NCBI GenBank assembly: GCA_963668175.1
Contig: OY764159.1
Coordinates: 3,456,001 to 3,520,000 of the forward strand
Length of the DNA stretch: 64,000 bases
Direction: 5' to 3'
Source of the DNA: Syntrophales bacterium
GTDB lineage: Bacteria; Desulfobacterota; Syntrophia; Syntrophales; PHBD01
Part shown: positions 1 to 16,473 of the stretch, piece by piece
How positions within the stretch are numbered: position 1 is the stretch's first letter
How the letters are laid out: the number at the start of each line of letters is the position of its first letter
The notes under the pieces: model-generated
The model's input: the letters and a program-made list of their open reading frames with translations, nothing else
Databases searched by the model: none
Told to the model about the DNA's origin: nothing
Position numbers and translations under genes: made by a program

Positions 1-283
1 GATAATGCGCATACCCCTGCAGTTCGAGGGCCGTCTTCCCGCCGGCGTGTATAGGCAACTTCAACTGGGTCTGCAAAGTATATAAGGCTCCCAGCCAATC
101 GACTTTCTCTCCGTAGCGCTTATAAGCCCCACGACCGAAAGATTCCAGCCACTGGGCGAGCTTATATTTCACTAGGGTATCCGGCTTTAAACCTTGCGAA
201 ACCAGATAGGATGCTGCACTAGGAGTTCCGGGAACCCACTCGGTTATAAGACGGTTTATTTTTGTTCGATCTTTAGGACTCAT
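1..283 (-). CDS. abiEi: Type IV TA / AbiE antitoxin, AbiEi family, N-terminal part (runs off window start)
   Basis: Not in the ORF track. Manual translation gives MSPKDRTKINRLITEWVPGT...WLESFGRGAYKR...WLGALYTLQTQLKLPIHAGGKTALELQGYAHY, which resembles AbiEi_3-type proteins. Confidence 0.8.
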   Translation of the reverse strand, partial: MSPKDRTKINRLITEWVPGTPSAASYLVSQGLKPDTLVKYKLAQWLESFGRGAYKRYGEKVDWLGALYTLQTQLKLPIHAGGKTALELQGYAHY

Positions 284-290
284 AGTCATA

Positions 291-319
291 ATAATAGCAT
301 AATCTTTAACTCATGTCAA
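291..319 (-). promoter_or_regulatory. Sigma70-type promoter of abiEi (probably leaderless transcript)
   Basis: Minus strand TTGACA-17nt-TATTAT ending 7 nt before the ATG at 283; no RBS. Confidence 0.6.
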
Positions 320-1057
320 TTCAATAGTTATGTATTATTTTGTTTTTATGACTATTTGTCATATTGCTATCTTATTTCTTAACTTTTCCTTCCCCCACCT
401 GCTCCAGCACTTCCATCTCTTACATCTCCCGCTCCATCTCCATCTCCGTCTCCATCTCCAGCAGCTCCACCATCTTCATCACCACACCAACAACGACGAT
501 AATAATCATGGTGGCTGTCATCAATCACAAACAGAAGAGCTTCACGAGGAGGAGCAGAAGAACGAGGCGGTCTTCATAATAAAAAGTCAATTTTGAGGCT
601 GGTTAATTGACATAACTGCTTCGCCAGGTCAATTTGTGCTCCTGAAATTAATCGTTTCATTAATTGAATCAAAAGGAAGATTTGCAGTATTCGCGAATAG
701 CGAATGCAATAATTTCCATAAGTTTGAAATCCATGAAATTAGTGTAAGATATTATAAAATTTCAATGCAATGCAAAGTCGACTGATTATTCCATCTAACA
801 AAGCCATGTGAAAAGCGTTATCCTTAATCACACACTACATCATTCATTCATTCAGTCACCCACTCAATCAACCTTTCAATCATCCTTAAAGACAACCTCT
901 TGACCAGTCAACCGCATTCGCTTCTTTGAGAGGAATAATATTGGATGACCTACCCCACGAAAGCGGATCTAGCTGTTAAGTTAAGATTCGAGCATAATGA
1001 GCCAGAAACGGTTAACCGGGTTCTTTGCACGTTCCTTAATAGTTTGTGCTGTGTATT

Positions 1058-1687
1058 CTAAATCTGAGTAGTAATTCTTCGGCTTTCGAGGAATTTGACG
1101 AGAGTGCCCCTGTGGACGTCAAACATGCGGGCCATTGCGCTTTTTGAAATCTTCTTTGCCATCAGTTTTCGGATTTCATCCTCCCGGCCGTCCAGTCGGC
1201 TTTTTGATAAAGCACCTTTCGGCCTGCCCAATTTCTTACCTCCTTGTTTCACAGCAGCCAGGGCCGCCTTTGTCCTGGAACTAATCATATCCCGCTCCAA
1301 CTCGGCCAGTAGAGAGAACACCGTCACCATGACCTTTGAGGTCATGTCGTGGTTGCCCTGGACATCGAGGTTCTGTTTGATGGCCACGAGGCGGATCTTC
1401 CGTTCAACCAGGGCGTTGACCAGGCCGATCACCTCCGGAATGCTCCGGCCAATCCGGGACAGTTCCGAGACGATAAGCAGATCGCCCGGTGCGAGTTTGC
1501 CCATCAGCTCATCGATGCGCCGCTCCTTCGTCGTTTTGCGAGAGGAGATCTCGATCGAGATGAACTCGTCGACATTGATCCGGTGCCGGTTGGCGTAGTC
1601 CAGGATCTCCAGGCGCTGCTTGTTGACGTCCTGCTCATCCGTCGAAACGCGGATATAGGCAATGGTTCGGGGTTGGGAGGTCATCAT
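1058..1687 (-). CDS. Serine recombinase (resolvase/invertase family) with C-terminal HTH
   Basis: AYIRVSTDEQ catalytic Ser motif, LIVSELSRIGRS, AELERDMISSRTKAAL, KLGRPKG and a terminal HTH; start reassigned to MMTSQ at 1687. Confidence 0.92.
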   Translation of the reverse strand: MMTSQPRTIAYIRVSTDEQDVNKQRLEILDYANRHRINVDEFISIEISSRKTTKERRIDELMGKLAPGDLLIVSELSRIGRSIPEVIGLVNALVERKIRLVAIKQNLDVQGNHDMTSKVMVTVFSLLAELERDMISSRTKAALAAVKQGGKKLGRPKGALSKSRLDGREDEIRKLMAKKISKSAMARMFDVHRGTLVKFLESRRITTQI

Positions 1688-1869
1688 TTTTGATTCTTTC
1701 TCTTTTTGCGATGCCAAATCAATTTCGCAAACCGGGGATCTTGTTGAGCGGCCAGTGCGAAAACGTAGTTGAGTGTGTCGACCTCCTCCTGAGGGATAGT
1801 GGGATCGTGAAACCAATAGCCTCGAACTTTATCTAAATGTACGACCTTCTCGTCTTTCTTGTCGCTCAT
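1684..1869 (-). CDS. Small hypothetical protein (61 aa) coupled to the resolvase
   Basis: GGAGG RBS upstream of MSDKK; its stop overlaps the resolvase start (ATGA). Confidence 0.55.
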   Translation of the reverse strand: MSDKKDEKVVHLDKVRGYWFHDPTIPQEEVDTLNYVFALAAQQDPRFAKLIWHRKKRKNQK

Positions 1870-1888
1870 TGGTGGATCAACCTCCATT

Positions 1889-2067
1889 GTCATCTAAGGG
1901 GATGACAGAAACGGCCCCAGGCTGTCATCGAAAGGGATGACTAGCTAAATCCTGATACAGAAGCGTAAACCAATAAAATCAACACGGTTGAGGAAATCAG
2001 GATAGACGACTTGTCATCGAAGGGGATGACAGAATCGGCCCCTCAGGCTATCATCGAAGGGGATGAC
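1889..2067. repeat. Four copies of palindrome RTCATC-N6-GATGAC arranged as two ~55-bp direct repeats
   Basis: Copies at 1889-1906, 1924-1941, 2013-2030 and 2050-2067; the linkers AGAAACGGCCCCAGGCT and AGAATCGGCCCCTCAGGCT are also similar. Confidence 0.9.
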
Positions 2068-2316
2068 AACCCTGTTATCTCGTGAATCTATCATACCGTG
2101 CAATTTGCTCATCTGTCAACATAAATGCCTAAAAACTAATTATAGTGATGAATTTTTGATAACTTTATTACTTATATTCAGTGATATAATTTTTACTATG
2201 CTATACGTTCCTTTTATTGATACATGCCTTCATGAATATAATAGTTGACGGATATCGAAAAATATGTATGATTAGTGTCGCGTTACACGATACATTTTTG
2301 TCAAGGAGTTTGTAAC

Positions 2317-5300
2317 ATGACGATTCCGTCCGAACAATATGACCATCCAGGGACCTATGTCCGAAAGAATATCATTCCCTCAGGCATGTCTGTTAAAGAT
2401 GCCGCCATACGGCTCGGTGTCGGCCGGCCTGCGCTATCGAACTTTCTCAACGGGAAATCCTCCCTATCACCCGACATGGCGGTTAGGCTGGAAAAGGCGT
2501 TCGGTGCCGACCGGAAGAAGCTACTCGACATGCAGGCTGCCTATGAACAACAGGAGAGGCGCGGCAGTGAACAGGAGGTCGCCGTGCGCGCCTTCGTCCC
2601 CTGCTTTCTTACCATCAAAGCCAAGCATATCGAGGAGTGGGCCGGCAGCAATATTGAAGCGCGTACCCACCTTCCCGTCTTACTGCGGAGGCTGGTACAT
2701 TCTACCGGCCACGATCTTCGTCAGGTCGACTTCCCAGGTTATGACAACGCGCAACGGAAGGGGTCAGATGGTTTCGTCGAAGCGGGCGCCGCTACACCAT
2801 GGATTCCTAAGGGAAAATCCCGTTGGGAGTTTGGAGTGGACAAAAATCCAAGTGTTAAAGCTGATAAAGATTATATAGCGCGGCTCACATCTGTTAATGC
2901 CGATGAAAGAGCAAAAAGCGCATTCATCTTCGTAACACCTCGCAATTGGCCCGGTAAGACTATTTGGGAGAAAAAAAAGAACGCGACCAGGGACTGGAAG
3001 GTTGTCAGAGCACTTGACGCAAGCGATCTCGAGCAGTGGCTGGAACAGTCGGTGCCGGCACAGGTCTGGTTCGCTGAACAAATAGCTATGCCTATCAGTG
3101 GCTATGAGACGCTGGAGCAGGCATGGCGACGCTGGACCGATGTTAGCGATCCCAATATGACTCCGGAGATATTTGCGCCATCGATTGCCGCTTACCGGGG
3201 GATGTTTAAATCATGGCTTGAGAAAAAGAGCGAAAGATTCTTTGTTGTCGCTGCCGATTCAAGGGATGAGGCGCTAGCTTTTCTGGCGTGTTTGTTTAAT
3301 GATGACGAACTCCGTAAATTCAAAGACCTCACTGCGGTCTTTACATCTTCGGCAACTTTAAAGACGCTTATCGCATCATCTGTGCCTTTCATTCCGATTG
3401 TCCATTCTTTAGACGCTGAACGTGAATTGGTCGATGCCCATCGCCGGCTTCATTGTATAGTTTTTCGTCCTCGAAATGCAGTTGATACAGAGGCTGATAT
3501 AGCTCTCGACCTGCTCGGATACGAAGACTTTAAGAAGTCACTTACGGCAATGGGAATAAGGGAAGAAGAAGTCAGTATGCTTGCAAGGGAGTCGGCTCAT
3601 TCACCTACGATCCTGCGCCGCCGTCTTTCTATAAATCCGGCGATCAGAATTCCGGCTTGGGCTGGTGATGACGAAATGTCAAAGGCTCTTGTACCAATAG
3701 TACTGATCGGTGCTTGGCATACCGAGTCGAAAGCGGATCGCGAAATCGTTTCATCGCTGGGCGATCGAGAGTACGAAACTATCGAAGACGATATCGCGCG
3801 TCTGCTCCGTTACGACGATAGCCCGGTGTGGTCTACAGGAAGTTACCGTGGTGTTATCTCTAAAATCGATGCGATATTTGCGATTGCAAGGATGATCACG
3901 CGGCCAAACCTCGACCGATTCTTTATTGCCGCTGAATGCGTCCTTGCGGAGTCCGACCCGGCGCTTGAACTGCCGGGAAAGGACAGGTGGGCCGCGGCAT
4001 TGTATGGTAAGACACGAGACCACTCCGGTGCTTTGAGAAACAGTGTCTGCGAGACGCTTGTCATCCTTTCGGTTCACGGAAACATCTTATTCCAGGACCG
4101 TATTGGCATCGACGTCGAAAGCTGTGTGGCGGCTCTGATCCGCAAGCTCTTAACGCCGCTGACGCTCGAAAAATTACTCTCCCAAGATAGCGATCTGCCT
4201 CGTTACGCTGAAGCAGCCCCCGATGTATTTCTCCGGATCATCGAAGCAGATCTTCAGAACGACGATCCAATCGTTCTCGGCCTTCTTAGCCCTGTCGACA
4301 GAAACTCATTATGGGATTCGCCGTCACGGACGGGTCTTCTTTGGGCGCTAGAGTGTCTTGCATGGAAACCACAGAACCTCCTTCGCGTATCGCTGATCTT
4401 AGCTCAACTCTCGCGGCGGAAAATCGACGACAATTTGATGAATAAACCGGATGCAAGCCTTCAGGAAATCTTCAGTTCATGGCTGCCGCAGACCGCAGCT
4501 TCAGTAGAAGAAAGGATCAAGGCGTTGGAAACTCTCATCAGGCGTTATCCGGATGTCGGATGGGAGATTTGCACAGCACAGATCAAGCCAGGTCCCCAGA
4601 TGGGCCACTATAGCTACCGGCCCCGCTGGCGCGGTGACGCCACTGGTGCCGGGCACGGTGCCACGCGCAAAGATATATACACGTTTTGCAGAAAGGTTTT
4701 GGATTTACTGATCGATTGGAGTTCTCATGATGAAAATACCCTTGGCGATCTCGTCCAGTCTCTCCAAGGCATGCCCGAGAAAGACCAGTCTAGGGTCTGG
4801 GATCTTATCAGTAAATGGTCCCCGAAAGCTAGTGAAGAGGCGAAGGCTACGCTTAGAGAGCGGATCCGAAAATTCGCTTTTACGCGACGCGGCCGTCAAC
4901 GAAAGCTTGGGGAAGCAACCCGTGACCGTGCACATGAAGCGTATGATAGCCTTAAACCTAACGACCCAGTAATCCGACACGGTTGGCTTTTCGCGAATCA
5001 GTGGATACAGGAATCGCCCGACGAAATCGAAGAGGAGGGGTTCGACTTTCGGAAACGCGATGAGAGGATCAACAGGCTACGTCGCGAAGCGATCACAGAG
5101 ATATGGACCGAATACGGTTTTGAAGGTGTCCAGAAATTACTTGCCGGCAGCGGTGCCGCTGGTACTGTCGGCCAATACGCAGCATCATTATTTACTGATA
5201 TGAAATCACAGGTTGATTTCATTTACCGTTGTCTTTCCCTTGATGGGGCTATCCGAAGTAAGGCTGATTGGTGCCTCCAAGGATTCCTTTGGTCGATCGT

Positions 5301-6387
5301 GGACGACTCACGCATCGAATTGCTGCAAGCTGCGCTTAAAGGACTGTCTGCTGAGGATTGTAAGCGGCTATTTATATGTACGCCTTTCCAAGAATCCACC
5401 TGGCGCCTTCTGGGCGATTATGATGAAGAGATCCGCAACGGCTACTGGCAGGACGTGTCTCCTTTCTTAGGCAAATTCACGCCCGCCGAGCTTACTACAG
5501 TGATTGACCGTTTTCTGGAAGCGAGGCGACCGCGCGCAGCATTCTTTGCCGTCCATATGGATTTCAGGGATATTGAAACATCGCGCCTCAAGAGGCTGCT
5601 GCTCGACGTTGCGACTGTCAATGTTGAGCCAGCAGATCATTTCAAGTTAGACAGCTACCACATTTCCGAAGCATTGGACTCACTTCATGGACGTGTGGGT
5701 GTAACCCATGAAGAAATGGCTCAACTTGAGTTTCTGTATATCGATGCCCTACGCAGCAGCAAGCATGGAATCCCGAATCTCGAAAGACAGATCGCGCAAA
5801 CTCCGTCGTTATTTGTCCAGGCCTTGGCGTTCGCCTACAAACGGAGTGACAATAGAGAAGACCCACAGGAGTGGAGGATTGAGAATCCCGAACAAAGGAG
5901 GGCGATGGCTTCGGCTGCTTATCACCTCCTTGACCAGATGGAGAAGATTCCCGGTACGGATGAAAACGGAAGAATTAAAGGAACGGATCTCACTGCGTGG
6001 ATTGCTGAGGTTAGGCGTCTATGCCATGAGTTCGCCCGCGTTGAAATTGGTGATCAGTGTCTCGGGCAACTACTAGCTAAGGCCCCCATGGATGAAAATG
6101 GCATATGGCCGTGCGAGGCAGTTTGCGAGGCGATGGAGGGAATGGCATCCGCTGAAATCGGCAAGGGATTCCATATCGGTGTAAAGAATTCTCGCGGAGT
6201 TCACTCGCGGGGCGAGGGGGGAGAACAGGAGCGCGAGCTCGCCGCGAAATACCGGGCTTGGGCCGAGCGCCTGCACTTTAACTATCCCTTTGTTGGGGGA
6301 GTCCTTGAGGATATCGCCAAGTCCTATGACCGTGAAGCCATATGGCAGGATTCCGAAACCAAGATCGAGAAGAGGTTGAACTATTGA
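2317..6387 (+). CDS. Large (1356 aa) protein with N-terminal HigA-type HTH, putative nuclease-like domain and long helical C-terminus
   Basis: HPGTYVR...AAIRLGVGRPALSNFLNGKSSLSPDMAVRLEKAFG is HigA/XRE-like; SDG...WEFG resembles a PD-(D/E)xK core; AGGAG RBS before the ATG at 2317. Confidence 0.8.
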   Translation: MTIPSEQYDHPGTYVRKNIIPSGMSVKDAAIRLGVGRPALSNFLNGKSSLSPDMAVRLEKAFGADRKKLLDMQAAYEQQERRGSEQEVAVRAFVPCFLTIKAKHIEEWAGSNIEARTHLPVLLRRLVHSTGHDLRQVDFPGYDNAQRKGSDGFVEAGAATPWIPKGKSRWEFGVDKNPSVKADKDYIARLTSVNADERAKSAFIFVTPRNWPGKTIWEKKKNATRDWKVVRALDASDLEQWLEQSVPAQVWFAEQIAMPISGYETLEQAWRRWTDVSDPNMTPEIFAPSIAAYRGMFKSWLEKKSERFFVVAADSRDEALAFLACLFNDDELRKFKDLTAVFTSSATLKTLIASSVPFIPIVHSLDAERELVDAHRRLHCIVFRPRNAVDTEADIALDLLGYEDFKKSLTAMGIREEEVSMLARESAHSPTILRRRLSINPAIRIPAWAGDDEMSKALVPIVLIGAWHTESKADREIVSSLGDREYETIEDDIARLLRYDDSPVWSTGSYRGVISKIDAIFAIARMITRPNLDRFFIAAECVLAESDPALELPGKDRWAAALYGKTRDHSGALRNSVCETLVILSVHGNILFQDRIGIDVESCVAALIRKLLTPLTLEKLLSQDSDLPRYAEAAPDVFLRIIEADLQNDDPIVLGLLSPVDRNSLWDSPSRTGLLWALECLAWKPQNLLRVSLILAQLSRRKIDDNLMNKPDASLQEIFSSWLPQTAASVEERIKALETLIRRYPDVGWEICTAQIKPGPQMGHYSYRPRWRGDATGAGHGATRKDIYTFCRKVLDLLIDWSSHDENTLGDLVQSLQGMPEKDQSRVWDLISKWSPKASEEAKATLRERIRKFAFTRRGRQRKLGEATRDRAHEAYDSLKPNDPVIRHGWLFANQWIQESPDEIEEEGFDFRKRDERINRLRREAITEIWTEYGFEGVQKLLAGSGAAGTVGQYAASLFTDMKSQVDFIYRCLSLDGAIRSKADWCLQGFLWSIVDDSRIELLQAALKGLSAEDCKRLFICTPFQESTWRLLGDYDEEIRNGYWQDVSPFLGKFTPAELTTVIDRFLEARRPRAAFFAVHMDFRDIETSRLKRLLLDVATVNVEPADHFKLDSYHISEALDSLHGRVGVTHEEMAQLEFLYIDALRSSKHGIPNLERQIAQTPSLFVQALAFAYKRSDNREDPQEWRIENPEQRRAMASAAYHLLDQMEKIPGTDENGRIKGTDLTAWIAEVRRLCHEFARVEIGDQCLGQLLAKAPMDENGIWPCEAVCEAMEGMASAEIGKGFHIGVKNSRGVHSRGEGGEQERELAAKYRAWAERLHFNYPFVGGVLEDIAKSYDREAIWQDSETKIEKRLNY

Positions 6388-6420
6388 AAGGAACTAGGTG
6401 CATCTCAACAGCCAATAAAC

Positions 6421-7797
6421 CTATTTCCAGTTGAGCTCAGGCCAAACCTGCCGCAAAACCTTTTCACTTTCTTGATTTGAGCAAAACTCGCAGTCCTGAA
6501 GTCTTCCATGTTTTCGCCGCAGCAGTTTATGTGGCGGCCGCCACGGATCGAGAGCAAGATAATTTTCGTTCATATTTCTCTGATCAATATCAAACCGAAT
6601 TAGTTCAAGCGCCAGTAACGCGCCAGCTAAATTCGAGATGAACGCAAATGGAGCTAATGATTGCTTGCCAGCGGCCGTTATTAATTCTCCGACTCCACAT
6701 AAAGATTTAAACAAAGTGTCAAAAGAGGTTCCAAGAAGAGCATCTTCGATCAGATTAGGATGGATTGCTGCAAGCTTATGCGCGATTGTCTTATCAATAA
6801 ATCCTTTTTGTACATCATCTAAAGAAATTCCCAAAGCTTCCGCTAAATGGCGCTCACGCTGATTTTCCTGCGGAATATGGGCGTAAATACAGGATAAACA
6901 TGCATTTAAATTTGGCTGACGATGGGAATGTATAATAATCTCAGAAATGTCTGTTGTTGACGCATCCAGGACCTCTACTGGAAGTTCATTTTGTATTGAT
7001 CTACGAGCACGACGACTATCAACCGTCGTAATTACCCTTCTCACTCTCTGGTCAGGTCTCGTTTTCCTGAAGTCGATAAAATTTCCCACATAGGCTTTCA
7101 CTTCCAATTCTCGGAATTTGGCTCTTGATGCTAGAATTTCAGCTTTATAATTGTGGTCCACATCTTCTGGCGAGAAGAAAAAACATCTGTTCAGGTTTCC
7201 CGAGCTTACTCTTTTGGGATCAACGACGAAAAGTCGGCCTTTTAGGGGTAAATGCTGAGCCGCCCATATGAAGCCGTTTGCTACACCTCCCGCCCCAACA
7301 AGCACTGCGTCGTCGATGGTAATATATTTTGAGAGGTTTTCCATTGGAAGGCCAACATTTTCAAAAATAAATATGAAAGGGTCTGGACTATTCGCGAATC
7401 TATCACCTCCGATAGTACGGGCGAGAACATAACCTGCCGCGAAGCAGGATGAAATCTTGCGCGTCAGATCGGGTACTGTCGCAACTTCAATGGAGTTAAG
7501 AGACGTTGCCGTATGAACTCTCATCTCTTTTTCCGTGACGGTCATCATTAACTTCAAAGATGCGTCCGTCAAGGGTTTGCAGCCAATTGCAAGCTCAATG
7601 TCACATTCTTCTCCCTCCGATACTATTTGTATGGTCCGCCTTAATAATTCAGAAATATCCGTTTTAAATGCAGCCGCTGACTCTCCAGTGCCTGCGGATA
7701 CTGCAGCTCTGAAATCAAGTCGCCTAGCAGCTTCGTCCTCGGAAATACCGGCAAGGCTCATCAATGTCCTTATGTTCTCAGTTTGGGCATCCATCAC
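6421..7797 (-). CDS. bilD: E1-like ThiF-family ubiquitin-activating enzyme (BilD-like)
   Basis: VGAGGVA nucleotide loop, SGNLNR, TTVDS, Zn-ligand pairs CLSC and CEFC, candidate catalytic Cys in SLCG; N-terminal extension consistent with an inactive adenylation domain. Confidence 0.85.
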   Translation of the reverse strand: MMDAQTENIRTLMSLAGISEDEAARRLDFRAAVSAGTGESAAAFKTDISELLRRTIQIVSEGEECDIELAIGCKPLTDASLKLMMTVTEKEMRVHTATSLNSIEVATVPDLTRKISSCFAAGYVLARTIGGDRFANSPDPFIFIFENVGLPMENLSKYITIDDAVLVGAGGVANGFIWAAQHLPLKGRLFVVDPKRVSSGNLNRCFFFSPEDVDHNYKAEILASRAKFRELEVKAYVGNFIDFRKTRPDQRVRRVITTVDSRRARRSIQNELPVEVLDASTTDISEIIIHSHRQPNLNACLSCIYAHIPQENQRERHLAEALGISLDDVQKGFIDKTIAHKLAAIHPNLIEDALLGTSFDTLFKSLCGVGELITAAGKQSLAPFAFISNLAGALLALELIRFDIDQRNMNENYLALDPWRPPHKLLRRKHGRLQDCEFCSNQESEKVLRQVWPELNWK

Positions 7798-8255
7798 GGT
7801 TCAATTCTTACTACTGATAGAAAATTAACGGCCATCCACTTATCTTCCGCAGATAACTGAAACGTTGCGACTTTTTTTTCAAAATTTTTTTCGTCTATAC
7901 GGCTAGCAAAATAAGGTACAACAATTGAAATGGCCCCAGCATGCCGCAATATTGCCCATCTGTCGTCGGCAATAGAGTGGAAGGCTTTTCTGGGATGAGA
8001 ATGAACCTGCGCAACAATTCTCGTTCGCGTTTTCCGAAGATACCCCATGAGCTCACGCATTGAAGCCGGAGGAATCCTAAAATAATCAATGTCAACTTCC
8101 TGTTGAGGTTTATAAACTTCCAATACACGAAATACTTTGTTCTCCTCAATTCCCAGCCATAGCACAACTGTTTCGCAATAGACTTTCCCGCCTTCTCGCA
8201 GAATGCTTAATGTCTCGCTTACGACCTTCCGGTGACAAATCACGTCGTTTCTCAC
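7794..8255 (-). CDS. bilC: JAB/MPN metallopeptidase (deubiquitinase-like, BilC-like)
   Basis: E...QVHSHPRKAFHSIADD (HxH-x7-S-x2-D) motif; probable GTG start at 8255 overlapping the E2 stop, with GGAGGAG upstream. Confidence 0.87.
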   Translation of the reverse strand: MRNDVICHRKVVSETLSILREGGKVYCETVVLWLGIEENKVFRVLEVYKPQQEVDIDYFRIPPASMRELMGYLRKTRTRIVAQVHSHPRKAFHSIADDRWAILRHAGAISIVVPYFASRIDEKNFEKKVATFQLSAEDKWMAVNFLSVVRIEP

Positions 8256-8680
8256 GAATCTACAGATCTCCTCCATGCGCGACTGAGCTGATCCAATAAA
8301 CCGGGCAGATTCATGCCATCCTGTTTCCGATATGTTTCCCAAGGATCATTCAAATGGCCGGGATGGTTATGATACTCACGGATTCCCCGCATACAAATGA
8401 ATGGCCTTTGCACTAGGGGATGTAAATCCGGGTGAAATATATTACCAGGCAAACTTTGAGCGGGCTTGGCACCATCGGGTTCGAGTAATTCCGCCGAAGG
8501 AGGCTGCTCATCCCAATCATCACATGTAAATCGAACACGCAACGGTCGACTTCCCAGAAACGTAACGTCAATAATTGGGAACTCACATGTGTGAAGTTCC
8601 CAGTTGCGATTGGCTATTAACCTCGGGGAAATAAGAACGGCGTCGCGATCAAAGTTCGCCCTTGCTAATACTTCATGCAC
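8252..8680 (-). CDS. bilB: E2-like conjugating enzyme (BilB-like)
   Basis: DDWDEQPPS and PFICMRGIREYHNHPGH with candidate catalytic Cys; lies between the Ubl and JAB genes; probable GTG start at 8680. Confidence 0.78.
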   Translation of the reverse strand: MHEVLARANFDRDAVLISPRLIANRNWELHTCEFPIIDVTFLGSRPLRVRFTCDDWDEQPPSAELLEPDGAKPAQSLPGNIFHPDLHPLVQRPFICMRGIREYHNHPGHLNDPWETYRKQDGMNLPGLLDQLSRAWRRSVDS

Positions 8681-8966
8681 CGCCGCCACCTTCTTTTTTA
8701 TGCCACTCGATTTCAATTATTCCATGAAGATGATTGGCGTGAAAAGTCTTATGCGGGTCAATCGGCCGGTTTTCAACAAATGCTTCCCAGTCTGTTGTAT
8801 TGGTGAGGTGTAAATGCGCGGCTGCCGCCTCTAAAATCTTACCGACAACCTCCTCACTATACGATCGCTTATAATCGTCATCGTCTGGATATGTCCCACT
8901 AGGTGTAATTACGGCAACAGCAATTGGATGATTTTCTCCATGTTTATCATGATGATCGTGTTCCAT
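8673..8966 (-). CDS. bilA: Ubiquitin-like protein (97 aa, BilA-like)
   Basis: Beta-grasp-sized ORF ending KKEGGGGA; first gene of the Ubl-E2-JAB-E1 array; AAGGAGG RBS; His-rich N-terminus. Confidence 0.8.
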   Translation of the reverse strand: MEHDHHDKHGENHPIAVAVITPSGTYPDDDDYKRSYSEEVVGKILEAAAAHLHLTNTTDWEAFVENRPIDPHKTFHANHLHGIIEIEWHKKEGGGGA

Positions 8967-9096
8967 TCGGGACCTCCTTAATCCTTCATGGTTGTTATGG
9001 TCACCTGCGGCTTGCTATTCTGTTAAGCCACAGCTTCAATCTGTTTCTACTTGCCTTTGCCGGTGAGGGTTGGAAATTCGGACATCGAGGAAATTT

Positions 9097-10020
9097 CTAT
9101 GGAACAAATAAATGGCGTCGTACTAGCCCACGGTATATGCCTAAAGTAAGAGCATCAAAACCATTGAAAAAACTTTCCATATGAAAAAGGTGTCGCTCAC
9201 CGTCACGCCCGGTAAAAATAACATCATCTTCTCCAAGGGGGCCACCACGTGCCCTTGACGCGTATCGCTGTATAGCAGTAAATACTTGGTTCTCCGTGAC
9301 ATCGCCAAAGCGATCACGAAAAGCAGGAGACTCAATGAAGTGACGACACGGTCTCGATGGATCGAAGTCAACTGCCAGATTTCTTGGGTGACCAGAAATG
9401 ACCCCAAATATGGGTTGATCCTTATGTGCTTCTTCAACAAGTCGCCAAAGAGTCATTGTGATAGTATTTCCGAACGTTTTGGCGAGGGTACGTGCTGTTT
9501 TTAAAGTTAAGGGAAGGTCTTGAGCCTCTTGGACAAAACGATCTCTCAAAAACAAGAGTTGTCCTGATCCAAAATTCGCCTCGGCTTCTAACTTCTCATG
9601 ACACGAGTGTCGTAATGTCTCTCCATCATCGCCATAGAAATAAGGACCGTGATGTGGGGTGATGCTGTGAATGATTTCATGGCTTTCCGCGTGGCGCTTT
9701 TTGAGATCGTGGATGCTATCGTCGATTAGAATGCGTTTGCGATCAGGAAGCCAAAGCGCTCTTAGTCCTGCCTTTTGGATTACATCGATAATGAGTGTCG
9801 GCCGCAACGCGAGTTGCTTAGCCCCCACTTTGATCCTACTAACGTACTCTCGAAGAGGGGCAGTTTGTACTGTGCTGTAAAATTGCCGGTCGAGCTCCAG
9901 CAGCTCTCGAACATCGCGAAGATCAAGTGGAGGCTCTGGATTCCCAAGTCCCCGGAGAACCTTGTCCACTTGATCCTTGATATCTTGAGCCGCATAGGGA
10001 TCGACCGGCAGATTCTTCAT
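9097..10020 (-). CDS. ImmA/IrrE-family Zn metallopeptidase (CapP-like)
   Basis: KRHAESHEIIH (HExxH) followed by EAEANFGSGQLLF and an HTH-like segment. Confidence 0.82.
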   Translation of the reverse strand: MKNLPVDPYAAQDIKDQVDKVLRGLGNPEPPLDLRDVRELLELDRQFYSTVQTAPLREYVSRIKVGAKQLALRPTLIIDVIQKAGLRALWLPDRKRILIDDSIHDLKKRHAESHEIIHSITPHHGPYFYGDDGETLRHSCHEKLEAEANFGSGQLLFLRDRFVQEAQDLPLTLKTARTLAKTFGNTITMTLWRLVEEAHKDQPIFGVISGHPRNLAVDFDPSRPCRHFIESPAFRDRFGDVTENQVFTAIQRYASRARGGPLGEDDVIFTGRDGERHLFHMESFFNGFDALTLGIYRGLVRRHLFVP

Positions 10021-10559
10021 TGATCTGTATGCTCCCTCAGAAATCTCACAAACTGATTGAGAAGATTCTGCTCTTCCCGAGAGAGCTTGGAAATGTTTTG
10101 CGAACTCGCAGCAAAGCGTACGACTTCTTCTCGCACTTCTTCACTCACTTGCACAGCACCAGAAAGAACCACTAAAATCCTTGATGGCAACTTGAAATAC
10201 TGTTCTAACTGAAAAATCGTGCGCGGATTTGGGTCAAATGTTGGATCAAGCTCAATCTGTCGAAGTTCACCAACGTCAATTCGCGCTTCGGAGGCAAGTT
10301 GCTCAGGGGAGAGTCGCTCTCTACGTCGGAGCATCTGAATCAGCGTTCCAAGTCCCCGGTGCATGTCAGGTAGGTCATCGGTCTTTTCAACACTATCGAG
10401 TGCTCTCTTGACAACATCTCGACTTTCGTCTGCAAGAGAATCAAAGTCCTTGCTCGCGCCCTCAAGAGCCTCCCGGAGTTCCTGTTCAGATGCCTCGTGG
10501 ATAACATCTCTCAGTGCGCGATTTATCCTTACCTTTCTAATCCCTCCTGTTGATCTCAT
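10017..10559 (-). CDS. XRE-family HTH protein with N- and C-terminal helical extensions
   Basis: LGTLIQMLRRRERLSPEQLASEARIDVGELRQIE; stop overlaps the peptidase start (ATGA). Confidence 0.78.
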   Translation of the reverse strand: MRSTGGIRKVRINRALRDVIHEASEQELREALEGASKDFDSLADESRDVVKRALDSVEKTDDLPDMHRGLGTLIQMLRRRERLSPEQLASEARIDVGELRQIELDPTFDPNPRTIFQLEQYFKLPSRILVVLSGAVQVSEEVREEVVRFAASSQNISKLSREEQNLLNQFVRFLREHTDQ

Positions 10560-10576
10560 TAAATAACCTCCCTTTC

Positions 10577-11116
10577 TTATAAATGTCGCACGTAATGGCG
10601 TCTAATTCTTTTCATGATAGTCTCATACTGTACTTTTCCTATGCCGAGTTCTTGTTGGATCTCGGACGCCGAAAAGCCCTCGCTTTTTAAAACTAGGAGG
10701 TCGCGAGCCATTTGATCTTCTTTAAATAAGTCTAGTATATTGTTTAGTTCTTCGTATGCTGATTGTCTTTCCAGAGGGTCAAACAATGGGCCTGCTATGT
10801 CAACTTCACGATCTTCAATCGATTCTGTACTGTGAGAAATGCTTGATTCAATTATATGTCCGGAATCGCTTTCCATTACCCTGTCCAAGTGTTTGATGAT
10901 AGATACGCTTTTGTTCCATCTCCTCCGACCGTCAAGTGTCTTCGTTATCGCTTCGTGTAGTAAATCATTGGGTTCGATAACCGAACCTTTCACGCGAGTG
11001 CGGCAAAAACTGCGTGCGATAAGGTTTAATTTAACATAATCCATCGGTCCGAGGGTCTCCATGGCCACTCGGGCTTCTTCACGTGTAGCGTACTGTTTAG
11101 CAATGTCAATTATCAT
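10577..11116 (-). CDS. ECF/sigma-70-like RNA polymerase sigma factor
   Basis: Region-2-like EPNDLLHEAITKTLDGRRRW and region-4 HTH EGFSASEIQQELGIGKVQYETIMKRIRR; GGAGGT RBS before the ATG at 11116. Confidence 0.72.
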   Translation of the reverse strand: MIIDIAKQYATREEARVAMETLGPMDYVKLNLIARSFCRTRVKGSVIEPNDLLHEAITKTLDGRRRWNKSVSIIKHLDRVMESDSGHIIESSISHSTESIEDREVDIAGPLFDPLERQSAYEELNNILDLFKEDQMARDLLVLKSEGFSASEIQQELGIGKVQYETIMKRIRRHYVRHL

Positions 11117-11481
11117 TTTCGCACACCTCCTACTACCTATTGCCCACAGCAAGGCGCATCACGGACATCGCAAGAGAATTTCTTTGATTTTTTAAACTCT
11201 CTATAAAGGTCAGTCCGCAGTTTATACAAAAATGTTTAAATTTACGAATTTGCTGATATTTAGAAGAAAGGATTTTAACATAATCTAGTACTCAATAGGG
11301 AATAATTCCAGCCTGCGATGAATTTTGTTACCATATCGGTTACCATTTTTTCTGAAAACTAAGGATATTTCAAAAGATTGACAGGGAGGGGACTTTTGGT
11401 AACAACAATTTATAACGTAATATATTTAGATCGTTATCAATCCAAAGCGCATTAAAGAAACCTATGAATAATGATGAGTAT

Positions 11482-11525
11482 GGGACTCAAAATCCCCCCT
11501 TCCTTGGGTAAATGTCGGTTTCAGC
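11482..11525 (+). other. Degenerate tRNA-Leu(CAA) fragment (probable att remnant)
   Basis: GGGA-CTCAAAA-TCCC anticodon stem-loop, then a variable-arm-like segment and GTCGGTTTC; no 5' half. Tandem GTTACCAT repeats ~150 bp upstream resemble integrase arm sites. Confidence 0.55.
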
Positions 11526-11729
11526 TTATGAGAAAAACCAGGAATCCCGCTTCTTCCTAGCCTATAAATAGTACCTTACGCCACATTCTCATACTTATGA
11601 ATCATTATACTATACATCGAACATCTTGTCAAGGTAAGCAAACAATTACAGATAGTTAGTTGACTTCAGTAGACCTATAATGTAATGCCTTTTTTCATTG
11701 TTCTCAATTTATCAAAAGGAGAGGGTATA

Positions 11730-12377
11730 ATGACAAAAGGTTACAGAGTAGTGAACTGGAGAAATGATCAGCGGCAAATTGTAGCATCAGAACTGATTCC
11801 TCAAGGGACGATCATCATGAAAGAAGATCCACTAGTTTGGGTGAAGACCATAAATCAAAGATACGATAATCATCCGTGGGATCTAACTGATTTATTGCTC
11901 AGCGATCGTTCAAAGTTTAATATTCTGATGAGCTGGAAATTACTGAATACTACGTTCGTACCGTGGGATAATTATGATGAAAGAATTTGTAAAAGGCTTG
12001 CAAATAATTTCCGTCTCGATAATCAAACTATCAGACATTTATATGAATTAATCTGCATTAATAATCTAAGTTGCTTTAGCAAAAAATACGAAGATATTAT
12101 AGGTTATGGCATTTTTCATAACCTAAGTTTCATAAATCATGACTGTACTCCCAATTCTTCAATATCAGCTGGTAACCCGACAAGGGGGGAAATGATGCTC
12201 ACGAGTGTGAAAGAAATAGAACAGGGTGAAAGCATCACGTTCACTTATCTATCCGATTTTGAGACAAAATTAAATATAAATTACAGAAGGAAAAGCATCG
12301 AATCACAATTCGGATTCATTTGCGAATGTAACCGTTGTTCGGCCGAGACCTCTTCTGATCGCGCACATCATTTTTAA
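11730..12377 (+). CDS. SET-domain protein-lysine methyltransferase, SMYD-like architecture
   Basis: N-SET IVASELIPQGTIIMKEDP, helical insert, SFINHDCTPNS, IEQGESITFTY, post-SET FGFICECNRC; AAGGAG RBS. Confidence 0.88.
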   Translation: MTKGYRVVNWRNDQRQIVASELIPQGTIIMKEDPLVWVKTINQRYDNHPWDLTDLLLSDRSKFNILMSWKLLNTTFVPWDNYDERICKRLANNFRLDNQTIRHLYELICINNLSCFSKKYEDIIGYGIFHNLSFINHDCTPNSSISAGNPTRGEMMLTSVKEIEQGESITFTYLSDFETKLNINYRRKSIESQFGFICECNRCSAETSSDRAHHF

Positions 12378-12415
12378 TCAGTAGGTTGCCGGCTCAATTT
12401 CAACAGGGCTCACTA
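12372..12415 (+). other. Degenerate 3' half of tRNA-Lys(TTT) (probable att remnant)
   Basis: TTTTAATCAGTAGGTTGCCGGCTCAATTTCAACAGGGCTCACTA resembles the anticodon loop to CCA end of tRNA-Lys; it supplies the SET gene stop codon. Confidence 0.55.
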
Positions 12416-12514
12416 GATCAAGGGGCTGCGAATGTGACGCCTTCGGGCTTTTTGACAGAATCGTTGTGTTTTCTCATAATCATCTCGTTATCAATCAAAA
12501 TGATAATGAACATT

Positions 12515-12928
12515 ATCATCTAAGGAGATGACGAACATCATCGAAAGGGATGACAAAGTCTAAGAAAAAGCCTTCTGTCATCAAAAGGAATGACGAGCGG
12601 CAATTGAAAATTTATCTTCGCCGTCAGTGAATCCTACGTACAGCCGGATGATACTCTTTAACGTCCTTATCTTCGAGTTTGCGCAAGAAAATATCCGTTT
12701 CTGGTATGAAGAATAAGGTTAAAAAATGCGCTGCATATAAACCAGTTTAATCATCGAGGCGAAAAGAATTGGGGGGTTCGGTGCCGCATCATCTGATCGT
12801 TTCATATTCACACTCCTGCCACGCTACAGGGCAACTAAAAACCTCATGCCTCCGCTATGCTATGGTCTTCCGGACTTTTCTTTCAACCGTTATCAGAAGT
12901 GATAACGCTTGTCATCAATTGGGATGAC
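12515..12928. repeat. Second cluster of RTCATC-N6-GATGAC palindromes
   Basis: Copies at 12515-12532, 12537-12554, 12577-12594 (one mismatch) and 12911-12928, plus variant GTTATC-N6-GATAAC at 12889-12906. Confidence 0.88.
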
Positions 12929-13558
12929 ATTCCCGATGCATCGCTACCAAAACACCGTCCACAATTGGCCTTTATTGACCGGTCTCAGGTCGCGGCAAAG
13001 CGCGCCACGACTCGATCGCTTCGTATAAGGGCCACCCTACGACGATACCCGGCAGGCTGAAGCCCTGTCCCTCTGTACACTAACCCGATAGCCAAGACAC
13101 TACCTGGGGCGGCGGGATCTTTGCTGTTTCAGATGATTACAGATGAACAACAAAGACCTGGAATAAGGGGGCTGCACAGCAGCTCCTTTAGAGCCGCGCC
13201 CCCTGCCCCTTGAGGGGCAGAGTTGGCGCGGCGAGCAGTCGCCTCCGTCCTGCTAAAAGCATTAGCGGCTTACGCCGCTGTAGCCGGCACAAGGCCGGCC
13301 ATGATCTATTGTTAAGGGTGAAGGGATATTATTCATCGGAAGCCGTTAATCAGTCTGTGTGAAATAAAATATACACCCGTGGCCGGAGGCGCAGCCGAAG
13401 GCGAGGGGAACCCCCGGAGATCGGGGGTAGGGGGCTGTGAGGTTTTAATCTTTTATCTCTATATTTTTTAGTTAAAGGCAGGCGCGTCACCTGTAAATAT
13501 GTGTAAACAATGCATGGACGTCCAACTGGCTGATATCGTGAGTTTGTAGCTTTACTGC

Positions 13559-13630
13559 ATGTCCTTTTTCGGACTTCGCTATGTCCATTTTCGGAGCTCA
13601 TTATGTCCGTTTTCGGAGGTCACTGTGTCC
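13559..13630. repeat. Iterons (22-bp period) of a plasmid-type replication origin
   Basis: ATGTCCnTTTTCGGA at 13559, 13581 and 13603 and partial GTGTCC at 13625; AT-rich flanks; directly upstream of rep. Confidence 0.85.
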
Positions 13631-13675
13631 ATGATAAATTAATAATGGCATATAAATGCCAATGCAGAAAAACTA

Positions 13676-13703
13676 TTGACATAGTAAAAAAAAGTGATAG
13701 AAT
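13676..13703 (+). promoter_or_regulatory. Sigma70-type promoter of rep
   Basis: TTGACA-16nt-TAGAAT upstream of the rep start. Confidence 0.6.
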
Positions 13704-13725
13704 CAAGAAATAAAAGGTGATTATT

Positions 13726-14721
13726 ATGGTTGACTCTGAAATCATTAAAAAAGCAGGCCTGCCACAGGCGATAAATAAACACTCAGCTGCGATCCATATA
13801 TCTGGCAACGAGCTAACATTGCTGCAGAGAAAGGCCTTCAATATATTGCTGGCTAATGCCTATAATGAGTTGGAAACTAAGGAGAAGCATACTATTAGAA
13901 TTTGGGACATACTTAGTTGCACAGGATGGCACGATGCAGAAACGCTCAAGAAGGCTCTTGTTGCTCTCAGCACTACAGCCGTCCAATGGAACATCTTGCG
14001 TAAGGATGACGACCGGGAAAAGGGCACGAGTGAGTGGGGAGTGGCAACTTTGCTCGCCGAAGCAGTTATTACGGACGACACCGTTTTAACTTATGCATAC
14101 TCGCCGACCATGCGTAAAAAATTATTCAATCCAACCATATACGCACGAATCAATTTGGCGATGCAGAAAAAATTTGCCTCCAAATATTCTCTGGCTTTAT
14201 ACGAACTGGCGGTGGATTACTTCATTCGGGCTCGCGGGAAAGGCAGAACCGGATGGATCGTCCTGGATGATTTTAAAAGGATTCTTGGCTGCGAATACGA
14301 AAAGAAGTATAGAAGTTATGGCGAACTAAACAGGCATATCATTCAAAAAGCGATAAATGAGATAAATGACAAATCGGATCTTCAGGTCACATACGAAACG
14401 AAGCTGGCCCGTGGGAAAGGCCGGAAAGTCATTGCTGTGAAATTTGGAATTAGTCGGAATGAATACAAAACAGCTTATTTTGACAAGATGTACGGGCCGA
14501 AACACAAGGAACCAGATCTCGAAACCCAGCTGGCCAAGCGCCTCCGAGACGAATTCTTGCTTAGCGAGAACCAGGTGGTTTATGCGCTAGAGATGCATTC
14601 TGCCCGCATCATGGACATACTTGATGAGGTCAAAAAAAATAATGATGCCGGTTTGGTCGAAAACATCGGCAGTTACACGTGGGATAAGATCAAGAATAAT
14701 TACATTCCGCCCGCTCGATAA
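13726..14721 (+). CDS. repB: Plasmid replication initiator, Rep_3/RepB family
   Basis: ELTLLQRKAFNILL, SKYSLALYEL, YGELNRHIIQKAINEIN and GRKVIAVKF are typical winged-helix initiator motifs; adjacent iterons. Confidence 0.88.
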   Translation: MVDSEIIKKAGLPQAINKHSAAIHISGNELTLLQRKAFNILLANAYNELETKEKHTIRIWDILSCTGWHDAETLKKALVALSTTAVQWNILRKDDDREKGTSEWGVATLLAEAVITDDTVLTYAYSPTMRKKLFNPTIYARINLAMQKKFASKYSLALYELAVDYFIRARGKGRTGWIVLDDFKRILGCEYEKKYRSYGELNRHIIQKAINEINDKSDLQVTYETKLARGKGRKVIAVKFGISRNEYKTAYFDKMYGPKHKEPDLETQLAKRLRDEFLLSENQVVYALEMHSARIMDILDEVKKNNDAGLVENIGSYTWDKIKNNYIPPAR

Positions 14722-14799
14722 ATCAAAGATATCCTTGTTTCCTAGACAATAGACGTAAAAAAACCGTCAGCCGGGAATTCATACGCTATTGACATGTGG

Positions 14800-15210
14800 T
14801 CATTTCTCGTCGGCAAATCCAACATCATGTCGGCTCTTAAAATGGCGCACATTACTCTTAATCAGGTGTGTTTCACCACTTCTCCTTGGTTCGATGCATG
14901 CGAGGTCATAAAGAAATTCGCCATTATTTAAATTTTCCATCAGTCGTTTTATATCTTCGACTTTCCATGCAGTACAACGTGGTGATAACTTTACTGGTCT
15001 GGGGTACCTGCCAGACTTGACACCTGCCCACCAATTAGATCGAGAAATTGGGATGATAGGGGGAATTGGTGGGTCCGATTTCGGATCTCCTAGGATTTGC
15101 CATATGCGCAAATAGCCTGTTTGAGGTAAATAATTACTCCCATTATTCTCACTGATGTTACTGGATCCGATTTCCATTCCTGTACTCATTTTTCCGTCTA
15201 GCTGTTTCAT
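14800..15210 (-). CDS. AlpA-family excisionase / regulator (start uncertain)
   Basis: GYLRIWQILGDP...IPISRSNWWAGVKSGRYPRPVKLSPRCTAWKVEDI. Confidence 0.8.
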   Translation of the reverse strand: MKQLDGKMSTGMEIGSSNISENNGSNYLPQTGYLRIWQILGDPKSDPPIPPIIPISRSNWWAGVKSGRYPRPVKLSPRCTAWKVEDIKRLMENLNNGEFLYDLACIEPRRSGETHLIKSNVRHFKSRHDVGFADEK

Positions 15211-15472
15211 AATCTTCGGTCTCCCGTTAAAATTCCCGTTTGCGCATGAGCAATAGTCGTTTATCCACTTTTCTATTCCTGTTACCATAGTGAGCGACAC
15301 AACTGGACGATCAATTTTGAATAGTCTTAACTAATCTTGGGTACAGGCTTTGGGGCGTCGAGTCAGTTGATGGAATTAAGCACCCCTATTTCTTGCGGTA
15401 GAAATGCGGTAGTTGTAAAATCAGACAGTTACGATATGATTTATAAATTTTATCAATATTTTCAACACTAAA

Positions 15473-15500
15473 ACGCGGGTTCGACTCCCGCCGCCCCCAG
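15473..15500 (+). other. tmRNA (ssrA) 3'-end-like att site
   Basis: ACGCGGGTTCGACTCCCGCCGCCCCCA is a T-arm plus acceptor strand like tmRNA 3' ends; tandem TGCGGTAG repeats ~70 bp upstream; hairpin downstream. Confidence 0.7.
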
Positions 15501-15530
15501 AATGTTAATCGATAAAGTCCAACGAAGTGC

Positions 15531-15558
15531 AAAACCCGCTAAAAACAGCGGGTTTTTT
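15531..15558 (+). terminator. Rho-independent terminator after the att site
   Basis: AAAACCCGCT-AAAAAC-AGCGGGTTTTTT. Confidence 0.7.
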
Positions 15559-15581
15559 GTTGGGTTGCTCGATCTTTTCCG

Positions 15582-15610
15582 TTGACAATTGTATACGTCT
15601 GCGATATACA
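15582..15610 (+). promoter_or_regulatory. Promoter/operator of the brnTA module
   Basis: TTGACA-17nt-TATACA with overlapping inverted repeat TGTATA...TATACA. Confidence 0.55.
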
Positions 15611-15616
15611 TGATCC

Positions 15617-15931
15617 ATGGATACCGGGGACATCATATCTCGATGCACCGGCTTCGACTGGGATGACGGGAACCTGCTTAAAAATTGGGAGAAGCACGGT
15701 GTATCGGCATCGGAATGCGAGCAGGTATTTTTCAATTTACCGCTCGTCGCAAGTCCCGATGTCGGGCATTCCGGGCAAGAGGCACGGTATTATACGTTAG
15801 GAAAAAGCGACGCCGGCAAATACCTTTTTATCGTTTTCACGGTAAGGAACAACCTGATACGGGTCATCTCCGCGAGAGGCATGAGTCGCCGGGAGAAGGA
15901 GGCTTATAAACACCATGAAAAGAATACCTAA
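15617..15931 (+). CDS. brnT: BrnT-family ribonuclease toxin
   Basis: FDWDDGNLLKNWEKHGVS...FIVFTVRNNLIRVISAR. Confidence 0.88.
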   Translation: MDTGDIISRCTGFDWDDGNLLKNWEKHGVSASECEQVFFNLPLVASPDVGHSGQEARYYTLGKSDAGKYLFIVFTVRNNLIRVISARGMSRREKEAYKHHEKNT

Positions 15932-16178: not shown

Positions 16179-16200
16179 TCCATTGCCCGGCCGGGCTGCC

Positions 16201-16450: not shown

Positions 16451-16473
16451 AAGGCGGGGGTCGGCCCCGCCTT
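16451..16473 (-). terminator. Terminator hairpin downstream of abfD copy 1
   Basis: AAGGCGGGG-GTCGG-CCCCGCCTT with A/T-rich flanks. Confidence 0.55.

Follow-up and report, generated by a model that had tools for sequence, protein, structure and literature searches.

The CEHH/6C operons of bacteria, which have been renamed Type II BilABCD (10.1101/2023.09.26.559546), encode the bacterial system closest to canonical eukaryotic ubiquitination, and only one of these operons, that of Ensifer aridi, has been dissected. Its JAB peptidase BilC cuts the ubiquitin-like protein (Ubl) BilA after Gly97, before Ala98; its E1 BilD and E2 BilB have the cysteines Cys417 and Cys138, respectively, a Cys4 zinc site has been described, and the system conjugated to lysines in E. 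coli in a nonspecific manner (10.1101/2023.09.26.559546). Chambers et al. collected 162 operons, of which 135 had all four genes and 25 were accompanied by CapH/CapP (10.1101/2023.09.26.559546). The Type I Bil system protects by tagging the central tail fiber of phages (10.1101/2023.09.04.556158). Here, we describe a four-gene locus at positions 6421 to 8966 of a 64,000-nucleotide stretch of a Syntrophales bacterium genome (contig OY764159.1 of assembly GCA_963668175.1, positions 3,456,001 to 3,520,000), which we call the window. The locus is very probably an intact Type II BilABCD (CEHH/6C) Ubl conjugation operon that likely serves in defense against phages or mobile elements and is carried on a plasmid-like island.

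A compact operon of four overlapping genes

A six-frame listing of open reading frames (ORFs) showed that the minus strand between positions 6421 and 8966 is filled by four overlapping ORFs, which encode a Ubl, an E2, a JAB peptidase, and an E1 in this order (Table 1). The neighboring genes overlap by 8, 4, and 4 nt at the Ubl/E2, E2/JAB, and JAB/E1 junctions, respectively. A first-pass annotation of the stretch had called these four genes, and its coordinates, lengths, and named motifs were all recovered from the ORF listing, namely, FICMRG in the E2, the HxH, S, and D of the JAB peptidase, and CLSC at 300 and CEFC at 436 in the E1. The gene set is not a product of chance, since the Ubl-E2-JAB-E1 order recurred in all 14 of the loci that were retrieved with the Ubl profile alone.

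The Ubl start codon is preceded by AAGGAGG at a distance of 6 nt. The E2 ORF can be opened as early as a TTG at position 8716, which would give 154 aa; however, most of its 37 relatives have 140 to 148 aa, and the aligned ones start with MHE or VHE, so we placed the start at the GTG in Table 1, which matches the relatives in start and size. Likewise, the longest JAB ORF begins at a TTG at position 8342 and has 182 aa, but five relatives have JAB ORFs of 153 aa that begin on the E2 stop codon. The start was therefore assigned to the GTG that forms the same GTGA overlap with the E2 stop, and the E1 start sits on the JAB stop in a GTGA overlap as well. The imperfect inverted repeat that spans the E1 stop lies between the E1 gene and a convergent gene and may be a terminator; the terminator scan made no call at this site.

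The E1, E2, and JAB proteins resemble their E. aridi counterparts

The assignment of the locus to the Bil systems, proposed from the letters of the sequence, was borne out by searches against PDB chains, in which the E1, the E2, and the JAB peptidase each had the E. aridi protein of the same function as the best match. The JAB peptidase was matched by Pfam PF14464 (Prok-JAB) at 1e-5, by the PADLOC BilC model at 8e-12, and by E. aridi BilC (8tyx_B) at 1.9e-15. Its JAMM residues, E28, H85, H87, S94, and D98 in the numbering of the 153-aa protein, were invariant in 11 sequences, which agrees with the intact motif that had been noted before.

The E1 matched PF14463 (E1-N, 1.6e-9) and PF00899 (ThiF, 2.7e-10), both above the cut-offs, whereas NCBIfam gave sub-threshold ThiF-type matches only, and its best PDB sequence match was E. 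aridi BilD (8tyz_A, 1.9e-13). It consists of an E1-N part, i.e., an inactive adenylation domain, and a ThiF adenylation domain, with Cys367 in an inserted region. Cys367 (SLCGVG) aligned to the Cys of the AICGG segment of BilD, which, by count along the printed alignment, would be C417, the residue named as the catalytic Cys of BilD (10.1101/2023.09.26.559546). Among 10 sequences, G168 and G170 of the Gly-rich loop, D193, N201, N203, R204, and D260 were invariant, as were Cys367 and the two CxxC pairs, C300/C303 and C436/C439.

The E2 was matched by PF14455 (Metal_CEHH) at 3e-9, above the cut-off, and its sole match among PDB chains was E. aridi BilB (8tyz_C, 6.6e-9). An AlphaFold2 model made from a 29-row alignment had a predicted local distance difference test (pLDDT) score of 92.6, and a Foldseek search with this model returned BilB chains as the top three hits (E, 4e-8 to 1.6e-7; TM, 0.61 to 0.72), with eukaryotic E2s matching weakly and ranked behind them. 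The lack of an E2 fold in the 142-aa protein had been set beforehand as a possible refutation of the first-pass reading, and the model instead shows a UBC-like fold. The CEHH residues, the putative catalytic Cys96, Glu102, His104, and His109, lie in the segment FICMRGIREYHNHPGH, which aligned to the BilB segment FLCMAGVREYHDNPAH; the CEHH residues of BilB are C138, E144, H146, and H151 (10.1101/2023.09.26.559546). The Cys and both His residues were invariant in 29 sequences.

The Ubl has a single beta-grasp domain and a glycine-alanine end

The Ubl comprises a disordered leader rich in His and acidic residues (approximately residues 1 to 13), one beta-grasp domain, and the EGGGGA end. The first-pass annotation had set the lack of a beta-grasp fold beforehand as a possible refutation of its reading, and the AlphaFold2 model from a 33-row alignment is a single beta-grasp with a pLDDT of 86.5. 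A Foldseek search with this model gave 110 matches in the PDB at E ≤ 0.001; SUMO, ISG15, and GABARAP headed the list, and the BilA chain 8tyx_A was at rank 21. On the level of sequence, the Ubl had no match in Pfam, PADLOC, NCBIfam, or PDB sequence searches, and a 59-row profile found SUMO2 as its best PDB match with an E value of 0.02. The link to BilA therefore rests on the fold, the operon context, and the published catalogue. The Metal_CEHH E2, the E1-N domain in the E1, and the single beta-grasp Ubl together support the earlier term "type II-like", and so do the constant gene order in the 14 loci and the presence of two of their strains in the Type II catalogue.

A word-indexed search gave 86 Ubl relatives with lengths of 92 to 136 aa. 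The GGGG run was invariant in the 33-row alignment, and the final Ala was conserved there in at least 90%. In the 86 relatives, the Gly run was followed by Ala in 79, by Ser in 1, and by a tail of five to seven residues in 5, with 1 unparsed; an invariant Gly run with a tail of variable length fits a tail that is removed. In Type II Ubls, a conserved Gly precedes no more than nine nonconserved residues, and the window Ubl agrees with this pattern. By analogy to the E. aridi BilA, the terminal Ala may well be the residue that the JAB peptidase removes, as had been suggested.

The His-rich leader, in turn, had been proposed to bind metal or affect oligomerization, and this proposal found no support in the form of a conserved feature. 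The leader ahead of the AVAVIT strand varied from 10 to 53 aa (median, 20), did not align by position, and contained no conserved motif. There was no His in the leaders of 12 of the 85 relatives and three or more in 29 of the 85, His made up approximately 10% of leader residues, and the first ten residues were modeled at a pLDDT of 48. The leader thus shows a composition bias in which His is enriched, and not a conserved motif.

A complex model of the E1 and the Ubl scored 0.85, while the best control scored 0.00; 116 of 157 solved complexes came up to this mark, as did 2 of 215 mismatched pairs. The different runs shared at least 89% of the contacts, with a pLDDT of at least 85 for the partner and of 85 to 86 for the E1. 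The modeled contacts join Ubl residues 89 to 97 with E1 residues 168, 170 to 173, 201, and 258 to 262, which places the Ubl tail in the predicted adenylation site of the E1. Since a like complex has already been solved (8tyz and 8tz0), this result speaks for likeness to that complex and is not independent proof of binding.

A profile search of 1.84 billion representatives yielded 126 Ubl matches with E ≤ 0.001, from which the 59-row profile mentioned above was made. Five of these (P0143, P0171, P0178, P0183, and P0187) have 231 to 245 aa, with approximately 145 to 160 additional N-terminal residues ahead of a C-terminal beta-grasp domain. They are probably the N-terminal-domain Ubl variants of Gong et al., who found a single beta-grasp in 105 of 134 Type II Bil Ubls and variable N-terminal extensions in some (10.1101/2024.11.21.623966). 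Another protein, P0162 of 249 aa, was matched by the Ubl profile at residues 4 to 90 and by the CEHH E2 at residues 131 to 243 (38% identity; E, 5e-17). It is a predicted Ubl-E2 fusion, either a natural one resembling BubAB or a gene-call artifact at the overlapping junction.

The operon recurs in diverse bacteria

The 14 loci retrieved with the Ubl profile, numbered L001 to L014, come from species-representative genomes, with hosts including Dyella, Bradyrhizobium, Afipia, a Hyphomonadaceae metagenome-assembled genome (MAG), two Eremiobacterota MAGs, a deltaproteobacterial MAG, and others. Two of them, L004 of Afipia broomeae ATCC 49717 and L008 of Dyella sp. S184, belong to strains listed in the Type II BilABCD table (supplement file 3 of PMC10557695), which means that the sub-lineage of the window operon has already been catalogued. 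Its grouping with Type II rests on these two catalogued strains, the Ubls of which are 62 to 63% identical to that of the window. E1 relatives occurred in 6 plasmid records (4 conjugative) and in no phage record. One copy on a Rhizobium plasmid is annotated as multiubiquitin, putative metal-binding, Mov34/MPN/PAD-1, and ThiF.

Three of the 14 loci (L001, L010, and L014) look damaged. Among them is the closest related operon, at positions 10625 to 14845 of L001 from the deltaproteobacterial MAG, which has a 77% identical Ubl. There, the JAB gene is split by an insert of approximately 2.9 kb, the four ORFs of which had no Pfam match, the E1 match covers residues 1 to 231 only, and an rve-type transposase lies upstream. 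In L010 and L014, both derived from MAGs, the E1 is broken into several frames at about 11100 to 12520; these breaks could be pseudogenes or assembly errors, which are indistinguishable here.

Proposed course of conjugation

The results establish the gene content and order, the homology, the folds, the intact catalytic residues, a predicted docking of the Ubl to the E1, and the conservation of the operon. Beyond these, all of the biochemical steps are inferred, as are the regulation and the antiviral role, the mechanism from the E. aridi system and the antiviral role from the protection by Type I Bil and the association with regulators. In the proposed course, BilC would cleave Ala97 off BilA and expose Gly96, which the ThiF domain of BilD would adenylate and then hold as a thioester on Cys367, within a mobile insertion. 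The Ubl would be handed to Cys96 of the CEHH-type BilB, and BilB would attach it to target lysines without a dedicated E3; BilC may also be able to reverse the conjugates. By the same kind of analogy, the role of the operon is most likely defense against phages or other mobile elements.

Regulator-like genes lie upstream of the operon

Three further minus-strand genes precede the Ubl gene, encoding a CapP-like ImmA/IrrE metallopeptidase, a CapH-like XRE-family helix-turn-helix (HTH) protein, and a sigma-70/ECF-like protein (Table 1). The CapP-like protein was matched by the PADLOC capP model at 1.5e-7, and its nearest Atlas clusters were ImmA/IrrE (score, 0.98). For the CapH-like protein, Pfam HTH_19, HTH_3, and HTH_31 were all below the cut-offs, PADLOC HTH_VI matched at 2.2e-7, and a 76% identical copy was found in L001. 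The two proteins probably hold the operon in a repressed state, from which DNA damage or single-stranded DNA would release it by setting off the cleavage of the repressor.

The sigma-like protein was matched by TIGR02937 at 4.3e-5, below the cut-off, and by Pfam Sigma70_ECF at 0.02, and it had no significant PDB sequence match. Since its gene recurred among the 14 loci in L001 only, and there in fragments, we leave it out of the established system and regard its membership as uncertain. A promoter-like site lies ahead of the sigma-like gene, and the search for operator-like palindromes before the Ubl gene found only a weak one of 13 nt, which is inside the start of the Ubl coding sequence.

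In the related loci, the capH and/or capP models matched upstream ORFs in all 13 of those with upstream DNA, both of them in 8; 42 of the 78 listed upstream ORFs were run against PADLOC, and L011 has only 249 bp upstream. L004, L005, and L006 gave a capH match only, which may reflect the picking of ORFs, because the published table lists CapP for Afipia broomeae. CapH/CapP-type genes were thus seen, at about 8000 to 10000 in the related loci, in 13 of 13 cases versus the 25 of 162 (15%) given in the preprint for Type II Bil overall; this frequent association may characterize the sub-lineage, or the count in the preprint may be an underestimate.

The operon lies on a low-GC island with plasmid-like genes

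The G+C content is 46% over positions 1 to 16400 and 57% beyond, with a step at approximately 16.4 kb, past which genes for anaerobic acyl-CoA and 2-oxoacid metabolism are found. The first-pass annotation had placed the operon on a mobile element, which is fair by its context, i.e., the low G+C content and the Rep_3, resolvase, and toxin-antitoxin genes; the left end of this element lies outside the window. A megablast search of positions 1 to 16500 against the PLSDB plasmids gave no match.

At a distance of 33 nt from the E1 gene, and convergent with it, lies the gene for a 1370-aa protein, which has a HigA-like HTH at its N terminus (TIGR02607, 4e-15) and a weak PD-Lambda-4_A match (0.0023). 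No other family matched this protein, and it was absent from all 14 related loci; the island possibly carries it as a separate gene for defense or addiction. The lowest-GC stretch of the island (approximately 36%) encodes a SET-domain protein (PF00856, 2.4e-11) with an NHDCTPN motif; methyltransferases with a SET domain are rarely found in bacteria. We rejected the 1370-aa neighbor, the SET-domain protein, Rep_3, and the resolvase as parts of the system, as none of them recurred in the 14 loci. Beyond the G+C step, ARAGORN called an 83-nt tRNA-Val(cac) inside the ORF of an ABC-transporter ATPase (23713 to 24477), which is probably a false call.

Table 1. Features of the window (positions in the window; empty cells, not given)
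Feature	Position	Strand	Remarks
AbiEi_3_N antitoxin fragment	2-289		Cut by window edge
Resolvase (serine recombinase)	1058-1816		Low-GC island
1370-aa protein	2275-6387	+	
Imperfect inverted repeat, possible terminator	6404-6435	.	14-nt arms, 79% complementary; spans E1 stop
bilD, multidomain E1	6421-7797	-	458 aa
bilC, JAB/JAMM peptidase	7794-8255	-	153 aa from GTG 8255
bilB, CEHH-type E2	8252-8680	-	142 aa from GTG 8680
bilA, Ubl	8673-8966	-	97 aa, ATG start; C-terminus EGGGGA
CapP-like ImmA/IrrE metallopeptidase	9097-10020	-	307 aa, HEIIH; start overlaps HTH-gene stop by 4 nt
CapH-like XRE-family HTH protein	10017-10559	-	180 aa; HTH at approximately residues 70-125
Sigma-70/ECF-like protein	10577-11152	-	191 aa; first gene of co-directional array
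Promoter-like site, TTGACA-17-TATAAT	11604-11632	-	12/12 consensus match only; approximately 450 nt upstream of sigma-like gene
SET-domain protein	11685-12377	+	
Rep_3 initiator	13717-14721		Low-GC island
AlpA-like match, weak	14800-15300		Low-GC island
BrnT	15617-15931		Pairs with CopG antitoxin, 15915-16178
tRNA-Val(cac), probable false call	24158-24240	-	83 nt

Weighing of the Type II Bil reading

Several results weigh against reading the locus as a regulated antiphage operon of the Type II Bil kind. The PADLOC BilA and BilD models had no match at E ≤ 0.01, and the BilB model matched the E2 at 0.006 only; the call of four genes cannot rest on PADLOC, since BilC was the only model that matched convincingly. 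The Ubl sequence, the 33-row profile, and the 59-row profile all missed the crystallized BilA at E ≤ 10. The E2 has none of approximately 26 residues of the long BilB loop ahead of the catalytic Cys (residues 94 to 100 of the E2 correspond to residues 98 to 130 of the BilB chain), and this extended loop was proposed by its authors as a target-recognition element (10.1101/2023.09.26.559546). On the side of regulation, the CapP-like protein reached 0.014 with Pfam Peptidase_M78, below the threshold, and had no PDB sequence match, the capH model had no match to the HTH protein at E ≤ 0.01 in PADLOC, and the promoter scan found no promoter-like site in the 130-nt gap ahead of the Ubl gene. The putative regulators point in the same direction as the operon here and in L001, L012, and L014, whereas 9 of the 13 related loci with upstream DNA have them in divergent orientation. 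As for the antiviral role, the available text of the Type II preprint contains neither the word "plaque" nor the word "anti-phage", and its Discussion says that the system could protect, and no more (10.1101/2023.09.26.559546).

The most probable of the alternatives is that the machinery conjugates indeed but serves the island or a general stress response, for instance by tagging host proteins upon DNA damage or in the competition among plasmids, and not the defense against phages. We consider this unlikely, but it accords with the Rep_3, resolvase, and toxin-antitoxin genes around the operon, with the occurrence of E1 relatives on plasmid and not on phage records, and with the Type II preprint, which, in the available text, describes the conjugation in E. 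coli as nonspecific and contains no assay with phages (10.1101/2023.09.26.559546). Related Bub operons are likewise without demonstrated protection and are possibly stress responses (PMC13373217). Against it stand the phage tail fiber tagging and protection by Type I Bil (10.1101/2023.09.04.556158), the description of CapH/CapP-type regulators as controllers of immune operons, and the reported location of Type II operons near CRISPR and other immune systems (10.1101/2023.09.26.559546). A decaying, inactive copy would be in line with the broken state of L001, the closest relative, and with the split E1 frames of L010 and L014; it is nevertheless highly improbable for the window, where the four ORFs are intact and linked through their overlaps, with none of the conserved catalytic or metal residues missing. 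Hardly credible is a ThiF/MoeB-type adenylation system, of the sulfur-carrier or the peptide-modifying kind, that has a ThiS/MoaD-like beta-grasp protein and conjugates no proteins. The ThiF domain of the E1, its weak matches to MccB and to TIGR02356 (thiF), and the Gly run of the Ubl would allow for it; yet the thiF model gave 17.5 bits against a cut-off of 275, the E1 has an E1-N domain and the invariant Cys367 in its inserted region, the locus encodes both a UBC-like E2 with an invariant Cys and a JAB peptidase, and among the best fold matches listed for the Ubl, there are SUMO, ISG15, GABARAP, and other Ubl modifiers but no ThiS or MoaD entry.

The Type II Bil operon is thus the reading that we retain. 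A further step would be to take the compact relatives, without the E2 loop, with GGGG-Ala ends and CapH/CapP neighbors, as a sub-lineage of Type II, and the window locus as a seven-gene unit in which an ECF-like sigma factor and the long CapH/CapP proteins are cotranscribed with bilABCD from a single consensus promoter. Taken jointly, this is a tentative and rather doubtful proposal. If true, it would imply a sigma-driven feed-forward regulation that departs from the E. aridi paradigm, and the choice of targets would perhaps be made by the variable, charged, His-rich Ubl leader and not by the E2 loop.

Comparison with known systems

Type II CBASS, which combines a CD-NTase with the Cap2 E1-E2 fusion and the Cap3 JAB protein, was rejected because the E1 and the E2 are separate here; no CBASS model except capP matched the eight proteins scanned with PADLOC. 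The Bub operons of Type I and Type II share the Ubl/E2/E1 chemistry and are often under CapH/CapP, CapW, or CapK/CapS control, but their genes are fused (Ubl-E2 and JAB-E1, or E2-E1) and accompanied by a DUF6527 protease. We rejected membership in this group, as the window has four separate genes, and the ORFs scanned between positions 2 and 30540 had no DUF6527 Pfam match. Type I BilABCD of Collimonas sp. OK412 has the four functions and the gene order in common with the window operon, and its PADLOC BilC model matches the window JAB peptidase. However, two beta-grasp domains make up its Ubl, and its E2 has neither the Glu nor the first His of CEHH, whereas the window Ubl has one domain in 97 aa and the window E2 the full CEHH, and the PADLOC BilA, BilB, and BilD results given above also speak against membership in Type I.

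The prototype of Type II BilABCD, E. aridi TW10 (PDB 8tyz, 8tz0, 8tyx, and 8tyy), has the gene order Ubl-E2-DUB-E1 in common with the window operon. Both have an E2 with the full CEHH set, an E1 with E1-N and ThiF domains, an aligned Cys, and two Cys pairs, an intact JAMM motif, and a Ubl of a single beta-grasp with a Gly-Ala end (97 aa in the window versus 98 aa), and near both lie genes of the CapH/CapP type, putatively so in the window. The differences are that the window proteins are compact, with an E1 of 458 versus 535 aa and an E2 of 142 versus 204 aa that lacks the loop segment described above, and that the window Ubl ends in the invariant GGGG plus Ala and has no detectable sequence similarity to BilA. 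Moreover, the regulator pair of the window is of a long form (180 and 307 aa), co-directional with the operon, and preceded by the sigma-like gene.

The operons of Afipia L004 and Dyella L008 come closer to that of the window, sharing its gene order and the compact E2 and E1, and the catalogue lists CapP and CapH for both. Their proteins are 63% and 62% (Ubl), 40% and 56% (E2), 44% and 45% (JAB), and 44% and 47% (E1) identical to those of the window, respectively. They differ in that their CapH (107 aa) is on the opposite strand, as is the 179-aa CapP of L008, while L004 had no capP match among the ORFs run, and in that no sigma-like gene was detected in either of them. The window operon is a reasonable second model next to that of E. 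aridi, since it is intact and compact, has all of the catalytic residues, and has relatives that lie nearly always beside CapH/CapP-type regulators; the targets of Type II Bil, the need for the E2 loop in the choice of targets, and the switching by DNA damage are the questions that it could serve. It adds a further example to a family that is already known, Type II Bil, rather than representing a system of a new kind, and it leaves the current picture of this family unchanged.

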